Virus record (IMG/VR): IMGVR_UViG_2698536443_000011
Coordinates: 1 to 8,947 of that record
DNA from: a virus
Lineage: Duplodnaviria; Heunggongvirae; Uroviricota; Caudoviricetes
Direction: 5' to 3' (one strand)
DNA length: 8,947 nt
In this document: one piece after another, positions 2,944 to 8,947 of the stretch
How the letters are laid out: every line of letters starts with the position of its first letter
Numbering within the stretch: position 1 is the first letter of the stretch
Translations under genes and position numbers: made by a program
The notes under the pieces: model-generated
The model's database searches: none
What the model was told of the DNA's origin: nothing
The model's input: only the letters and a program-made list of their open reading frames with translations

Positions 2944-2971
2944 AGTTACCCCCTTTATGGAGTATTTACAT

Positions 2972-3000
2972 ACAAAAAAGCCCCACCGTTAGGCAGGGCT
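2972..3000 (-). terminator. Rho-independent terminator downstream of the capsid gene
   Basis: Minus-strand RNA reads AGCCCUGCC-UAAC-GGUGGGGCU followed by UUUUUUGU: a 9-bp stem with two G-U pairs, a UAAC tetraloop and a U-tract. It lies directly after the TAA that closes the in-frame extension of the capsid ORF. Confidence 0.7.
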
Positions 3001-3091
3001 AATTATTATTCTTTAGTTTTACGCTGTTTTTTAGCTGTGGCTTTCGCCTTAACCGTCTGGGATTCTTCTTCCGGTTCAGGAATCAGATTTT

Positions 3092-3112
3092 CTTCCCCCA
3101 AATCGGGGGAAG
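3092..3112 (-). promoter_or_regulatory. Perfect GC-rich hairpin 23 nt downstream of the capsid UGA stop; no U-tract
   Basis: Plus strand cttccccc-aaatc-gggggaag: 8-bp perfect stem with a 5-nt loop. The flanks on both strands lack a U-tract, so it is not a canonical terminator. Confidence 0.4.
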
Positions 3113-3134
3113 GTTCAGATGGTTCTACAGGAGT

Positions 3135-5147
3135 TCATTCAGCGGAGATGTGAAGAACTTTCAGAGCTTCCGGCTGAGTAACAACATAATCCAGGTCTAC
3201 CCAGATTCGCGGAACGATAGCAGACTGTGCGCGGTAGGTAGTGTCGTCCATATCCAGTTCCAGACCGCCCCACTCACCAATGGTGATACCGTCGAACGCG
3301 CCCAGAACGATGTGGTCTGCCGGGATAACACCAGAAGTAACTACTTCGTAACCAGCCAGTTTGCCGTTTTCGATGATATAACCGGAAACGCCGTTATCTT
3401 TCAGGGTAGATTCCAGTTCAGCAGCAGTTGCACCGCTCATCGCAAACTTGATCGCCTGAGCAGGAACGCCAGCGTCGGTCAGTGCTGCAATTTCTTTCAG
3501 GAAGTCTTTGTAAGAGAAAGCGGCTTTCTTAGTAACGCGACCCGCGTCTACCAGTTGCTTAACCAGACCAGCCGGACCACGGTCGTTAGCTTTATCAGAC
3601 AGAATCAGTTGTTCCAGTTTGATGCGAACAGCTTTGTTAATGTGATCAGTGATCAGGGTAGCGATGCCGGGAACTTGCTTTATGCTAGCTCTGCTGATCG
3701 GATTCCCACCAGCGAACGTCTTAGGAGCCATTTTCACGTTTGCAAATTCAGCTTTACCTTCCGGTGCAGCACCGTTTTCATCAACGAAGCCGAAAGCGTC
3801 AACGCTGGAAGCGGTCATTTTTGGTACTGCGATCGGGGAAGTCAGGCCAGACAGAACGGTTACACCGAGGCGGCCTAAAACACTCTGAGGCAACAGCATT
3901 TCGATGTAGGATTCAGTCAGCAGTTTTTCATCAGTAACAGCGGTCAGAGTAGCTTTGGTGTTACCTTCGGAAGCAGCACGCAGAGCAGCAGCCGGAACGA
4001 ATACAGAGCCACCACGAGCAGCACGACCACGCTGCATAGTTGCAGTAGCAGCCATTGCGGAATATTCAGCTTCGTTAGCACCCAGAGCAGCACCATCTAC
4101 CAGAGAGCGAATTACGTTGTTCAGGTCAAAGATTTTTTCCATTTTAGAGTCCTTAATTTGTTGTTCGTTATTACGTTGAGCATTGGTAATGTTATTTAGT
4201 GCCTTAGTGCGGAATGCTTCCGGCGTAATTCCTTTATTTGCCAATGCGCGTTTAAATTCTTCATCGTCTTCGTTAATATTTAGCTCGCGTGCAATTTCGC
4301 GAATTTCTAATTCGTCTTCTTCGGAACGTTCAGCCACTTCTTCGATTTTTTCTTCTTCAACCGGAGCGGCTTCACGTTCTTCTTTTACTTCTTCTGTTTC
4401 CCGAACAGTTGAACTATCATCATCAACACTTTCAGGATGTTCAGCGTCTTTTCCGTCTTCGAGATTTTCATCTTCTTTATTCTCTTCAACTTGGCGCTCT
4501 TGAGTTTCTTCTACTTCCGATTCTTTATTTTCTTCTACCGGAGTTTCTTCAACCTGAGCGGCTTCTTGTTCTTCTTTGATTTCTTCGATTTGTTCTTTAG
4601 TCATATCGTGTTTAGCCTCCAAATTAACTGTGATAGTATTTAGAGAGCGATTTAAACCGACCGTATCGTCTGCGGGAACGGTGACAAATGAGAGTTCATA
4701 GGGTGCCCACTTAGTAACAATCAATTGTCCTTTGGTGTAGTCGATGTGATATTCTTTAATGTCATAACCGACAGAAATTTTTTCCATCGTACCTTCAATG
4801 ACTTTATTACGAATATCATTAGCCAAAGTGCCATGCTTAGAGAATTTAACCAGAGCACGGCCTACGTTATCCGCATCGATTCGAGCGTCGCAGACTACAC
4901 CTAAATGATTATCGAAATTATGATTGAACAGCAACGGAGCGTTATTATTCAGACGAGACAGATCAACCGCTTCCGGTGTATGTACCAGAATTTCATCTAA
5001 TACCACCATTTCTTGATTTTGCTCATCCCAGAATTGGCGCTGATAAGGCTGTTCACTGGAGAAAGCAATTTCAAATTCGTATTGATCGTTATGCCCTTCG
5101 TTAATAACTCCACCGTAACCGTTAAGTTCGCGGCGAAATTTAAGCAT
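3135..5147 (-). CDS. Tripartite head protein: N-terminal prohead serine protease domain (HK97 gp4/S78-like), Glu-rich scaffold-like linker, C-terminal HK97-fold major capsid protein
   Basis: Residues 1-170 carry protease-like motifs (NHNFDNHLGVV..., MEKISVGYD with a candidate catalytic Ser, ELSFVTVPADD resembling the HK97 protease C-terminal motif). Residues ~175-300 are extremely acidic (EEIKEEQEAAQVEETPVEENKESEVEE...). Residues ~330-670 are Ala/Gly/Thr-rich and capsid-like. SD AAGGTGATTAA-ATG at 5147. Stop TGA at 3135-3137, followed 135 nt later by a strong intrinsic terminator. Same architecture as the tripartite capsid gene described for Salmonella phage Gifsy-2. Confidence 0.8.
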   Translation of the reverse strand: MLKFRRELNGYGGVINEGHNDQYEFEIAFSSEQPYQRQFWDEQNQEMVVLDEILVHTPEAVDLSRLNNNAPLLFNHNFDNHLGVVCDARIDADNVGRALVKFSKHGTLANDIRNKVIEGTMEKISVGYDIKEYHIDYTKGQLIVTKWAPYELSFVTVPADDTVGLNRSLNTITVNLEAKHDMTKEQIEEIKEEQEAAQVEETPVEENKESEVEETQERQVEENKEDENLEDGKDAEHPESVDDDSSTVRETEEVKEEREAAPVEEEKIEEVAERSEEDELEIREIARELNINEDDEEFKRALANKGITPEAFRTKALNNITNAQRNNEQQIKDSKMEKIFDLNNVIRSLVDGAALGANEAEYSAMAATATMQRGRAARGGSVFVPAAALRAASEGNTKATLTAVTDEKLLTESYIEMLLPQSVLGRLGVTVLSGLTSPIAVPKMTASSVDAFGFVDENGAAPEGKAEFANVKMAPKTFAGGNPISRASIKQVPGIATLITDHINKAVRIKLEQLILSDKANDRGPAGLVKQLVDAGRVTKKAAFSYKDFLKEIAALTDAGVPAQAIKFAMSGATAAELESTLKDNGVSGYIIENGKLAGYEVVTSGVIPADHIVLGAFDGITIGEWGGLELDMDDTTYRAQSAIVPRIWVDLDYVVTQPEALKVLHISAE

Positions 5148-5192: not shown

Positions 5193-6704
5193 TTAGGGAT
5201 CGGCTGGGGAATTTTTTTCTTCACCCTCACCATCAACGATAATATTTAGTGCGCTCTTTTCGGCTTGAATCTCTGAGAATACTTTTTCAGGATCGTCACC
5301 ACGTTCTAATATAACGGCAGTACGTGATTTAAGTCCTTTATCAATTAAAGCAATCTCGGCGTTTACGTCTTTAATTGGATCGACGGATTCAAAACGCGGA
5401 CGAATAATAGTAGTGTTCTCGATAATATGCGGAATTGCCGTAATACGAATCGGAACAATACCACGCGCGGAATAATGGCGTAGATACGCTTCGAAAATTG
5501 GCAATACCACTGTTTCAATTAATTTGTTTTGCAGTGCTTTAACGCGCGTTCTTTGAAGTAATTCGCCGTAGCGTGCAGCGCTGTAATTTATTTGGCTAGT
5601 ATCGCCAGTTAAGCCCTGATTGAACACGCCAAGACCCATTGCTATGCTAGTGAACATACCAGCGTTAAATGAATTGAAATCATCGCCGCTTTGCGTGGAT
5701 TGAATACTCTTGATCGTTGCCCCTTCCGGCAATTCCTGAATAGTACCCGGCGCGAAATCGTGAATAACTTCCGGCGCTTGATATTGTTCATCATCTTCAC
5801 CAGTATCAAAATCGTCACCAGAATCTTTCGGACGCTCGATGAACGCCATGCTACTAGCTGAAATTCGTTTCTGGACCAGTACAGCTTCGCGGAATGCGTC
5901 TTGATGTGCGATATCCTTAATCACTGGCAGGAAGTCAGTCACCCCACGCAGAGATTCAGCCGCAAGTGGTTGATAATAATGGCATACTTGCGAAGCATCT
6001 ACGCGATAGTTATCACCTGTGTAAGTCTGAGTCAGTAGGTTGATTTTACGAAACCAAAATGCAACAGGGCGCATTGTTTCTACGTCATACTCGATCCCCT
6101 GATAGATAGCACGTTCTTTGCTTACTTCACGGTTGAGCGTCCAGTCGCACTTATCAGCAGACAGGATAGAAACATTTAACTCATTGTTTTCTTTGGTTAA
6201 AACAATGAAGCACTCACCGCCCATTACGCGCTCACGTTCAGCCATTACCAGCAATTCACGGAAGTTAAAGCGACCGTTACGAGAGAAGCGTTTAGCATTC
6301 TGCGCCCACTTCCAGAAAGCATTCTCGATCTGCTTATTCAGTGCGCTATCAAGTTTGCCATTTGATTTAACGATTGATGGCTTCGGATCTAGGCCAGTAC
6401 CTACCACCATATCGGTTATGTATTGCGTGTAGCGACTGCCTACGGAAGTGTTTAAGGCCAGAGTACGACCCTGATCATAAAGGCGCTTACCGTTCGATTT
6501 GAGAGCCTTATTGAAGGTTCCTGTAATGGTGTCTTGTTGAAGTGATCCATCAATACGATCACCAACCAGTCCTAAACTCCGTTGAGATAGGTCTTTCTGG
6601 AATTTTTCTACTTGCTTATCGATGAAAATTTTTGGTTGTTGCTGGCGGTGATTAGTTTTAACTGGAGTTTCTACCGCCTTTTTGCGTCGAAAAAGATTAA
6701 ACAT
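5193..6704 (-). CDS. Portal protein, lambda gpB family
   Basis: 503-aa ORF immediately downstream of terminase and the W-like gene. The segment FTSIAMGLGVFNQGLTGDTSQINYSAARYGELLQ parallels lambda gpB IAAGLGVSYEQLSRNYAQMSYSTARASANE (recalled from memory). Acidic C-terminus. SD TAAGGGGTAAATC-ATG. Stop TAA at 5193-5195. Confidence 0.8.
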   Translation of the reverse strand: MFNLFRRKKAVETPVKTNHRQQQPKIFIDKQVEKFQKDLSQRSLGLVGDRIDGSLQQDTITGTFNKALKSNGKRLYDQGRTLALNTSVGSRYTQYITDMVVGTGLDPKPSIVKSNGKLDSALNKQIENAFWKWAQNAKRFSRNGRFNFRELLVMAERERVMGGECFIVLTKENNELNVSILSADKCDWTLNREVSKERAIYQGIEYDVETMRPVAFWFRKINLLTQTYTGDNYRVDASQVCHYYQPLAAESLRGVTDFLPVIKDIAHQDAFREAVLVQKRISASSMAFIERPKDSGDDFDTGEDDEQYQAPEVIHDFAPGTIQELPEGATIKSIQSTQSGDDFNSFNAGMFTSIAMGLGVFNQGLTGDTSQINYSAARYGELLQRTRVKALQNKLIETVVLPIFEAYLRHYSARGIVPIRITAIPHIIENTTIIRPRFESVDPIKDVNAEIALIDKGLKSRTAVILERGDDPEKVFSEIQAEKSALNIIVDGEGEEKNSPADP

Positions 6705-7284: not shown

Positions 7285-8947
7285 TTAGAACGATGTTACC
7301 CAGCTACGGCCTCTATTTGGGCGTCTGGCGATGTTTTGACGTTGTGGTCGTGTGATTGGCTTAGTTTCTTCGATTTGCTCGTTAGATTGCGTTTCAGGAG
7401 CTTTTACGGGTTCTTCGACAACACGGTTTAAGCTGTCTTTCATTGCAATGAGTTTATCCCATGACATTTTTGAAAGGACGTAGCGAGAAGCAGCATAGCT
7501 ATAAACCAGACAGTCGAGAGCCTCGTTTCGGGTACTACCTGGATTTTTCACCCAACGCACGCCAGTAGTAGTACGCTTGATGGATTCACTCAAAAGCTGA
7601 TCGAGATAATCATCAGGGACGGTGTCTGATATTTCTAAGGCAATATGAGGATTATCTTTCAGGTTTCTAACCAGCATTTCACGAACAGCAGATTTACCAA
7701 CGTTAACGCCCAGCATAAGCAATTCATGACCACCTGTGCGGGTAGGTTTAACCGGAATCACTGGAGCATTACCAGATGAACTACCTTTGATCGCGTGTAG
7801 ATTCTTCCACTTGCCGCAAATACGGTATCCGGCTTGAGTGAATCGACCGTTCGATGTATCAAGGAAGCTGGCGAGCATTGGTACACGTTCACCATTAACG
7901 TTATAGAATTTGGTTTTCTTGAAGTTAACCAGGCGATCCCAAACAGGTGATTCATATCGTTCACAGTTATGATCGTAAAAGCTGCGGTGATCCAGAATGT
8001 AAACCTTATCTTTCGCTACACCTAAGATGGTAGATTCTGCGCGGTCCAATTGCTGGTCAATTCCTGAACACAAGAAAATCACGTCATCAGGGATATTCTC
8101 GATAGAAACATCTGTTTTGAGTTGTTCCAGTTCATTTGCTTCTACTGCCGTGTCCTGATCGTCGTATACCTTGCCTAACACGGTGTTATAAAATGATTGT
8201 AGATCAAAGGATTGCCACGCATGACTAAAATCAACCACACAAGCGCGGATCGTGCTGAATGGTGAATACAGACGGCTGATCCAGAATCCGGCTACTTCAC
8301 TTTCACGGGTTACTCGCCATTCACCAGCAGCCACCGCCCTGATCCGCTCTCCTTCTGTCCATGCGTTCTTACAGTGGGGGCAAATATAACGAGCGGTATC
8401 AGGATCGGGTAAGTTCTTACCATCGATGTTACGCCATTCAAATTGAACGTTTTCCCACTCGATCACCTGGTGTTCCCCGCAATGAGGACACGGAACAAAA
8501 AACATACGCATATCACTTGATAACCATTGCTGGTTAATGCTTCCCAGCTTACTGGTCGGGGTACTGGATACGACTAATCGGCCTTCGTCGCCAAAGGTAG
8601 TTAAACGGTTAGCAGCCAGTGCCACCGGATCACCTTCTTCTGAGGCTGTAGCAGCATCGATTTCGTCTAGTAGTCCGACCTTTGCAGTCTTACCGCGCAG
8701 GGTCGATGGACTGGTTAGCGATACCATGTACAGGAAGTGATTCGTTTTTAGCTGTAGCTGGTTATTGTTGTTAACCGCATTGCGATCATTCTTGTCTGTA
8801 ACCACGTCTTTTAATGCATCACATGCTTCGATAGACGGTCGGTGAACCGCCCCGGGTTTCCTGGAGAGTGTTTTATCTGTGAACTCAGGCTGCCAGATCA
8901 TCGTTTCCGATGGAAGCATAATAAGCTTTTTCTGCTTCTGCCGGAGG
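7285..8947 (-). CDS. terL: Terminase large subunit, lambda gpA family; 5'-partial (reading frame stays open to the window edge at 8947, so the true start lies outside the window)
   Basis: Translation contains the paired Cys/His motifs [16 protein letters not shown] and [12 protein letters not shown], plus [17 protein letters not shown] and [15 protein letters not shown]. From memory these match lambda gpA (FHVACPHCGEEQ / ARYICE / AYSPFTTW / AGIDSQLDRYE / RRNEALDCFVYALAA). The VGLLDEIDA stretch resembles a Walker-B-like segment. The frame upstream of the first Met (8919) has no stop before 8947. Stop TAA at 7285-7287. Confidence 0.85.

Follow-up and report, generated by a model that had tools for sequence, protein, structure and literature searches.

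Extension of a capsid or tail protein by recoding is known in tailed phages only as frameshifting, and the use of stop-codon readthrough for this purpose is known from RNA viruses, namely phage Qβ and the luteovirids. Here we analyse an 8,947-nt stretch of DNA (the window; IMG/VR record IMGVR_UViG_2698536443_000011), the minus strand of which is the head module of an E. coli prophage. Its capsid gene ends in UGA and is followed in the same frame by 42 open codons that close at a tandem stop beside a transcription terminator, and an arrangement of the same plan stands behind the tail-tube gene of related prophages. Judging from comparative sequence, we consider it probable that programmed readthrough of the UGA yields minor, C-terminally extended forms of both the capsid and the tail-tube protein.

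In Qβ, whose host is likewise E. coli, a single leaky UGA closes the coat gene; host Trp-tRNA decodes it in a few per cent of cases, and the extended coat protein (A1) is a minor species in the virion. The base after that UGA is A, as it is here. Qβ is a single-stranded RNA levivirus with an unrelated coat fold and a folded extension of ~195 residues that is needed for infection, whereas the window belongs to a tailed double-stranded DNA (dsDNA) prophage with an HK97-fold capsid, extensions of 27–45 low-complexity residues and the same arrangement also behind the tail-tube gene; the two show no homology. In the CP-RTD proteins of luteovirids a proline-rich linker directly follows the stop, and downstream RNA elements promote readthrough. 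Luteovirids and poleroviruses resemble the present case in making a minor capsid species by stop-codon readthrough (PMC9553062) and differ from it as plant RNA viruses that depend on eukaryotic termination machinery and add a large functional readthrough domain, again without homology.

Recoded minor proteins of tailed phages arise by another route. The extension of T7 10B is displayed on the capsid surface. T7 (10A/10B), T3, Lactobacillus phage A2 and Listeria phages A118 and A500 are tailed dsDNA phages with a recoded, minor, C-terminally extended capsid protein, the T7 extension being short and not an immunoglobulin (Ig) domain (PMC5009743); all use -1 ribosomal frameshifting at slippery sites, whereas the extension in the window lies in the zero frame behind a stop. 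Listeria phage PSA recodes both its capsid (Cps) and its major tail (Tsh) gene into extended minor forms (PMC5009743), and the tail-tube extension of SPP1, gp17.1*, is sub-stoichiometric (3:1), exterior and dispensable (PMC8718954). PSA relies on a +1 frameshift and SPP1 on a ribosomal frameshift that adds a folded FN3 domain, in contrast to the single short charged tail that a UGA would place on both proteins here. Tail-tube proteins of the lambda type bear their C-terminal additions on the outside of the tube; in lambda gpV the tube (N) domain comprises residues 1–156 and the C-terminal part lies outside (PMC8718954). The 157-residue tail-tube protein of a prophage related to that in the window would be extended at the equivalent junction, although the Ig-like domain of gpV is constitutive, folded, ~90 residues long and free of recoding. 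The functionally closest systems are Qβ and the luteovirids; the biologically closest are T7, PSA and SPP1, all of which frameshift. A search of full-text literature, incomplete in its coverage, found no report of readthrough in a capsid or tail gene of a tailed phage.

The UGA stop and its in-frame extension

The 670-residue capsid product carries a Peptidase_S78 domain (Pfam PF04586, residues 40–162, E = 4.5e-10) and a Phage_capsid domain (PF05065, residues 412–666, E = 5.9e-24), and 24 RefSeq E. coli loci annotate its gene as 'phage major capsid protein'. A first-pass annotation of the window had proposed low-level readthrough of the UGA to give an extended capsid variant, and the anatomy it described is confirmed (Table 1): UGA-A followed by 42 open codons to a UAA, a perfect 8-bp GC hairpin 22 nt after the UGA, a terminator adjoining the second stop (its stem begins 2 nt after a tandem UAA-UAA) and, in the translation, a Pro/Glu-rich linker running into a Lys/Arg-rich tail. 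The other two sense frames close early, as had been said, at codons 4 and 7 (ELL*, NSCRTI*; read in locus L122, the extension of which is identical to that of the window). The stretch found unusual for so compact an operon lies in a gap of 191 nt from the capsid stop to the next gene (start 2943), the largest in the module, where other junctions range from overlaps to gaps of 79 nt. The Prokaryotic Genome Annotation Pipeline (PGAP) treats this extension and its counterpart behind the tail-tube gene as intergenic DNA and gives neither an annotation in any RefSeq genome examined. In a single sequence, 42 open codons would occur by chance with a probability of ~0.13, (61/64)^42, in agreement with the 10–15 percent first estimated.

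The comparison set comprises 74 relatives (24 RefSeq E. coli loci, 36 IMG/VR contigs and 14 metagenome contigs), 75 sequences with the window, which represent 37 nucleotide haplotypes. All 75 keep TGA-A and an open zero frame, which removes chance as an explanation. The codons around the invariant TGA vary (GAA, GAG or GAC before it, ACT or AAT after it). The extension is 27, 28, 33, 42, 43, 44 or 45 codons long and runs without a stop in each of the 37 haplotypes; in the 32 haplotypes for which they were tested, both the +1 and the +2 frame contain stops. In all relatives it ends in TAATAA or TGATAA, always 2 nt before the terminator stem. Its length differences, at least six in number (48, 27, 3, 3, 3 and 3 nt), are all multiples of 3, as against one of seven (1, 1, 1, 1, 2, 2 and 3 nt) in the 62-nt terminator and spacer that follow the second stop (one-sided Fisher p ~0.004). 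The ~67 substitution steps between haplotypes created no stop, where 18 of the 378 possible single changes would have done so (p ~0.04). The frameshifting indels and scattered stops that the first-pass annotation named as grounds for rejecting its proposal are thus absent from all 75 sequences and 37 haplotypes.

This constancy spans considerable divergence. The capsid genes of the clade differ to ~76–80% nucleotide identity, and two capsid types that are just 38% identical share an identical UGA and extension, with a mosaic junction a few bases 5' of the stop. Such depth bears on the idea that the extension is a decaying remnant, a longer ancestral C-terminus cut by a nonsense mutation in which disabling changes have not yet gathered. 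Tails that lie within the open reading frame (ORF) of relatives, a weakly constrained amino-acid sequence and the defective state of the window's own prophage, with insertion sequence (IS) elements in its terminase and fibre genes, would all suit a remnant. However, the clade has had time to diversify and to swap in a second capsid type, its substitutions and indels have left neither a stop nor a frameshift, and the same arrangement is found independently behind the tail-tube gene. We regard this explanation as very improbable.

Stop-codon usage sets the two recoding candidates apart. TAA is the stop of all six other complete genes of the window (TAA-TAA in three), and in a complete relative, prophage L114, it ends 28 of 34 genes. 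Within the 23-gene structural block of L114, TGA ends only the capsid and the major tail gene, in both cases as TGA ACT. Distant capsid relatives (34–40% identity), which lack the extension, end in TAA in 46 of 47 IMG/VR loci and in all other distant loci examined. The most highly expressed late gene of the clade therefore ends in the weakest stop, and its extension in the strongest possible signal.

The tail-tube gene lies beyond the end of the window and was read in L114 (16003–16650, minus strand) and in L187–L210. The 157-residue major tail protein of L114 matches PHROG 158 (E = 1e-20), and the lambda-like Pfam family Phage_TTP_11 just below the curated cut-off. Its TGA ACT stop is followed by a 174-nt gap with an in-frame 41-codon extension, TNEELPLPEPEPLPEHEAVVIPEVEEVTAKATAKRGRKAKN, built on the capsid plan of acidic Pro/Glu linker, basic tail, stop and terminator. 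The stem and T-run of that terminator are near-identical to those behind the capsid gene and the loop alone differs; the cassette motif occurs exactly twice in L114. In all 25 tail-gene loci (15 haplotypes) the gene ends in TGA-A and 36, 39 or 41 open codons follow, the other two frames are stopped in all 15 haplotypes, and the indels (6, 18 and 3 nt) are in frame, so that all nine length differences of the two cassettes are multiples of 3. Substitutions fall 12/9/15 on the three codon positions, with 17 amino-acid-changing to 12 synonymous states, which makes this extension slightly more constrained than that of the capsid. One contig with another type of tail protein (59% identity) ends that gene in TAA-T without an extension; its capsid gene has the cassette. 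Neither chance nor an element devoid of coding function fits this second cassette easily, since neither predicts a zero frame, in-frame indels and a UGA at two genes.

Further support comes from capsid relatives outside the clade. The closer outgroups have short Ala/Lys/Arg/Pro tails as their normal C-terminus (...KAPAGRSK is one such ending): in Salmonella these read ...LRVMKAPAGRSK and ...VVEKAAAARGK, and elsewhere ...GTPAEAKAAK(Q), ...GTPAEAPAEAKAGK and ...GEAEAGETRKAK. Those loci with a constitutive tail that were read to their ends have TAA and then a terminator, the TAA being tandem in L139 and L140. In four sister-clade loci (L180, L182, L115 and L181; around locus positions 2290–2380) the capsid ORF stops early (...KTGA or ...KQA, then TAA), and a basic tail rich in Ala/Lys is encoded by a -1-frame ORF that overlaps this stop and reaches almost to the terminator. 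Candidate slippery sites lie 2–4 codons before these stops: A_AAA_AAG in L180, the dnaX heptamer, with the -1 product ...GAQAAPVRKPRALKVTK; A_AAA_AAA in L182, with the product ...RKAKAKAETAE; and A_AAA_A and A_AAA_C in L115 and L181. From these few sequences, within one capsid family a short tail appears to be constitutive and a longer one to be gated by recoding, the gate being apparently a frameshift in one branch and a UGA in the E. coli branch, a lead that fits readthrough. The frame and stops kept by relatives, the tail-tube cassette and the tails of related capsids together support what the first-pass annotation proposed, and we infer that the extension is translated.

Other ways of using the stretch were considered and rejected. 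A separate small gene has no zero-frame ATG or GTG from which to start, and PGAP calls no coding sequence (CDS) there; the sole TTG lies within a hairpin, lacks a Shine-Dalgarno sequence and has changed to TCG or CTG in several variants, and no start codon inside the extension is conserved among relatives. Reinitiation at the ATG that overlaps the stop (gaATGA) would enter a frame that closes after 7 codons, and genes whose final codon is GAG or GAC lack this ATG. On the antisense strand, the codon-aligned frame is open in 30 of 32 haplotypes, with no start codon at ~3003–3150; such openness is usual opposite coding DNA, and the plus-strand ORF of 242 codons at 3150–3878 most likely owes its openness to the capsid frame opposite. 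Selenocysteine insertion, which would call for a selenocysteine insertion sequence (SECIS) hairpin with a SelB-binding loop shortly 3' of the UGA, is disfavoured by the lack of any Rfam match at E = 5 and by hairpins that differ in sequence, loop (GAUUU versus GAAA) and distance from the UGA (22 versus 10 nt). All the long ORFs of the window read through in the standard code, which speaks against reassignment, and as to a suppressor tRNA, the window contains no tRNA and the annotation of the complete prophage L114 lists none. A frameshift origin does not apply to the window, where the extension is in the zero frame behind the UGA and the +1 and +2 frames are closed; the slippery-site feature belongs only to the sister clade (L180, L182).

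RNA structure and competing explanations

The stretch from the UGA to the terminator is a chain of hairpins (folding z = -4.0 over 146 nt). In the first, HP1, the stem is invariant in all 56 long-type sequences and changes are confined to the loop (GAUUU, GACUU, GAUUC). HP2 is predicted in nearly all long variants, also with invariant stems, around a 6-nt loop that is a hot spot of variation (TGAACC, ATCTCA, TAAACC, TGAGCC, ACCACA). HP3 occurs in both cassettes, with a compensatory change from C-G to A-U in L022 and a change from C-G to U-G in L048, and the terminator is conserved with pair-preserving changes in relatives. The hairpin singled out by the first-pass annotation is therefore constant within the long type and not universal: in the 28-codon variants HP1 and HP2 give way to a different, stronger hairpin of 11 bp with a GAAA loop, which begins 10 nt after the UGA (z = -5.5 for this short variant). 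The long stem of the tail-tube cassette also begins 10 nt after its UGA. Because stems are invariant, loops vary and changes compensate one another, the RNA structure is clearly under selection. No part of the stretch has a match in Rfam, even at E = 5.

Several observations weigh against readthrough. Substitutions in the capsid extension fall 19/25/23 on the three codon positions, as compared with 35/26/80 in the last 42 capsid codons and 56/45/87 in the next gene, and amino-acid-changing states stand to synonymous ones as 39:20; since third-position bias is lacking, constraint on the peptide is weak. Three double compensatory pairs occur among the 7 short-type sequences, some of them changing amino acids (L to S with V to I; A to E with A to S), and on these alignments selection at the RNA level is at least as visible as selection at the peptide level. 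The number of independent events is well below 75, because many of the sequences are closely related and recombining. A fused form, with a sense codon for the UGA, was not found when the capsid end, W and the extension were searched as one query against a set of 5.8 billion proteins, a weak negative given that the search returned few, mostly partial, proteins. The extended proteins are predictions from sequence, and the family has no close isolated-phage relative: searches of isolated phages with the region and both capsid types gave only distant matches, with capsid protein identity of at most 37.5%. Natural E. coli isolates may, moreover, read through UGA less than K-12 does.

The extension gives no clear sign of the purifying selection that the first-pass annotation expected, a comparison confounded by the constraints of RNA pairing. 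Synonymous-biased substitution is missing; the frame is kept, and so are an acid-then-base charge pattern and an AKATAK(K/R)-basic motif, which persist across nucleotide versions and in both cassettes. The structural signal coexists with the coding signal and does not exclude coding.

These data define the main rival, a non-coding structured 3' module behind the two most expressed late genes, serving as an mRNA stabiliser or as the precursor of a small RNA derived from the 3' untranslated region, in which the open frame would be incidental. Such a module would account for the folding of the whole stretch in both its long and short forms, for invariant stems, variable loops and compensatory pairs bought at some amino-acid cost, for the missing third-position bias, and for the presence of the stretch with a near-identical terminator behind both the capsid and the tail-tube gene. 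It leaves unexplained why nine of nine length differences are multiples of 3, why the zero frame alone is stop-free in both cassettes, why both upstream genes end in TGA-A when the rest of the block uses TAA, why tandem in-frame stops close the frame, and why a similar tail is found inside the capsid ORF of relatives or in the -1 frame behind their slippery sites; nor does it belong to any Rfam family. We judge it unlikely.

A second alternative accepts readthrough and makes the peptide irrelevant. A ribosome that passes the UGA and reaches the UAA-UAA would mask the 5' arm of the terminator stem, and the polymerase would continue into the head-completion and tail genes downstream. The position of the tandem stop would suit such a regulator, since every member of the clade with the extension has 2 nt between stop and stem and extension-less relatives have 12–24 nt, and a frame that is kept while its amino-acid sequence drifts is equally in character; both cassettes also precede blocks of lower-copy genes. 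Readthrough of a few per cent, however, would alter terminator escape marginally unless termination were nearly absolute, and the stable hairpins in the ribosome's path would hinder close coupling to the polymerase. The persistence of the charge pattern and the basic motif in both cassettes would have no reason, and in relatives with constitutive tails such coupling is impossible. We think this regulatory role quite unlikely, and return to readthrough that serves to make an extended protein as the reading that best unites the observations.

The prophage family and the genes around the capsid

Of 5,426 complete E. coli genomes, 54 have a related prophage. That of strain PI7, ~35 kb long, is inserted within hicB and encodes a serine recombinase. 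The features of the window are collected in Table 1.

Table 1. Features of the window, from the capsid stop outwards; positions are those of the window.
Feature	Position	Strand	Remarks
Capsid gene, fusion of prohead protease, Glu-rich scaffold and HK97-fold major capsid protein	3138–5147 (3135–5147 with stop)	minus	670 codons
UGA stop, proposed leaky recoding site	3135–3137	minus	next base A (3134); upstream ...LHISAE
In-frame extension, TPVEPSEPSPDLGEENLIPEPEEESQTVKAKATAKKQRKTKE	3009–3134	minus	42 codons; Pro/Glu-rich acidic linker, then Ala/Lys/Arg-rich basic tail
HP1, CUUCCCCC-GAUUU-GGGGGAAG	3092–3112	minus	8 bp; 22 nt 3' of UGA; folds as predicted
HP2, inner stem UUCC-N6-GGAA with outer 3-bp helix	3064–3087	minus	
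HP3, mini-hairpin GGC-GAAA-GCC	3039–3048	minus	GNRA loop; encodes part of conserved AKA motif
Tandem UAA-UAA closing the extension	3003–3008 (UAA 3006–3008, UAA 3003–3005)	minus	
Intrinsic terminator	2973–3000 (stem-loop 2979–3000)	minus	9-bp stem, 4-nt loop, T-run; from terminator scan; 2 nt after tandem stop
gpW-like head-tail attachment protein, 96 residues	2653–2943	minus	weak Pfam PF05354 match; own Shine-Dalgarno sequence
140-residue protein, beyond the 96-residue gene		minus	
277-residue protein, beyond the 96-residue gene	1404–2237	minus	
Tail-fibre gene	65–1324	minus	start only in window
Portal, lambda-family	5193–6704	minus	
Head-tail joining protein, 165 residues		minus	
Large terminase, gpA type	7285–8919	minus	

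All RefSeq relatives list the 96-residue gene 3' of the capsid gap as a hypothetical CDS. From the terminator to the start codon of this gene, 62 nt (window 2944–3002) are identical in 37 of 61 relatives. They vary less than synonymous sites in the genes on either side, a pattern suggestive of frequent recombination or gene conversion through the junction. A scan of IMG/VR for the conserved spacer motif recovered exactly the 36 contigs already known through their capsids, with no hidden variant class there, and a metagenome search for intermediates returned more members of the same clade and distant ones ending in TAA, and no new intermediates. Further along, the N-terminal part of the 277-residue protein matches PHROG 158 (E = 1e-8) and is ~29% identical to the 157-residue tail-tube protein of relatives, which marks it as a putative second tube-like paralogue between the head-completion genes and the fibre.

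At the fibre end of the window, the ORF stops after 419 codons and its similarity to the 1,200-residue tail-fibre gene of relatives breaks off at ~75–80. Bases 1–80 are the end of a multi-copy mobile element, with 20,757 sites in 4,676 E. coli genomes, which we take to resemble the left end of IS2; the fibre gene is therefore interrupted. At the other end, the listed start of the terminase ORF (ATG at 8919) lies within sequence (8842–8947) that presumably encodes the C-terminal end of an IS3-family (IS629-like) transposase, and the Pfam terminase match begins at profile position 56, so that the terminase is probably truncated by an IS element. With IS elements lying in the terminase gene at one end of the window and in the fibre gene at the other, this prophage copy is probably defective. 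Decay is also seen in several relatives: the terminase of strain PI7 (L114, 26253–28279) is a frameshifted pseudogene, the capsid region of L013 is flanked by IS903B copies, and in L140/L141 (1–1851) the capsid gene is split into calls of 527 and 116 residues.

Proposed mechanism and what it would mean

We propose that most ribosomes stop at the weak UGA-A to give the normal capsid protein, and that a few per cent would insert an amino acid there, most likely tryptophan, through competition of near-cognate Trp-tRNA with release factor 2 (RF2). This competition sets basal UGA readthrough in E. coli K-12 at ~2% at 37 °C and ~4% at 25 °C (PMC10570021). Ribosomes that read through would continue for 42 codons to the UAA-UAA, and their product, a minority of the capsid protein, would end in a flexible linker, acidic and rich in Pro/Glu, and then a tail rich in Lys/Arg. 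With the same portable cassette on both genes, a minority of head and of tail subunits would display the same tail. Both extended species would be ~4.7 kDa larger than the normal proteins, and the predicted junction peptides are ...VLHISAE-X-TPVEPSEPSPDLGEENLIPEPEEESQTVK for the capsid and ...IFTAG-X-TNEELPLPEPEPLPEHEAVVIPEVEEVTAK (TNEELP...) for the tail tube, where X is W or another residue. Because C-terminal additions to tube proteins protrude outside and the capsid would carry the same tail, the tail most likely lies on the exterior of the particle. It may have an accessory, weak, charge-based adhesive role of the kind likened to that of the Ig-like and FN3 extensions which frameshifting adds in other phages (PMC5009743; PMC8718954).

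The hairpins may take part in either of two ways. They may stimulate readthrough: two of the three cassette forms have a strong stem that starts 10 nt 3' of the UGA, a distance that would put it near the mRNA entrance of a ribosome with the UGA in its A site, and it is a candidate stimulator on that account. They may instead protect the 3' end of a message that is rarely translated and mostly free of ribosomes. The stretch as a whole would read as a rarely translated coding sequence that must also fold. To our knowledge, no downstream stem-loop stimulator of readthrough has been established in bacteria outside SECIS.

A wider proposal, which we put forward tentatively and would stop a little short of calling probable, is that this is the first stop-codon readthrough system in a tailed dsDNA phage. 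It would consist of a portable cassette (UGA-A, a 10-nt spacer, a stable stem-loop, acidic linker, basic tail, tandem stops and terminator) copied behind the capsid and tail-tube genes, with the stem-loop acting as a bacterial readthrough stimulator and the same tail being delivered, across the family, constitutively, by -1 frameshifting or by UGA readthrough.

For annotation, the immediate relevance is that both extensions at present pass as intergenic DNA in PGAP. If readthrough is confirmed, tailed phages would gain a new mode of recoding, with the tails of the two major virion proteins gated by UGA in a family of E. coli prophages, and the cassettes would offer a natural bacterial context in which to ask whether downstream RNA structure raises readthrough. 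UGA readthrough in E. coli varies with temperature, with growth state and between single cells (PMC10570021), and the amount of tail displayed could therefore depend on the physiology of the host. One capsid family would then tune the copy number of a surface peptide by three routes.

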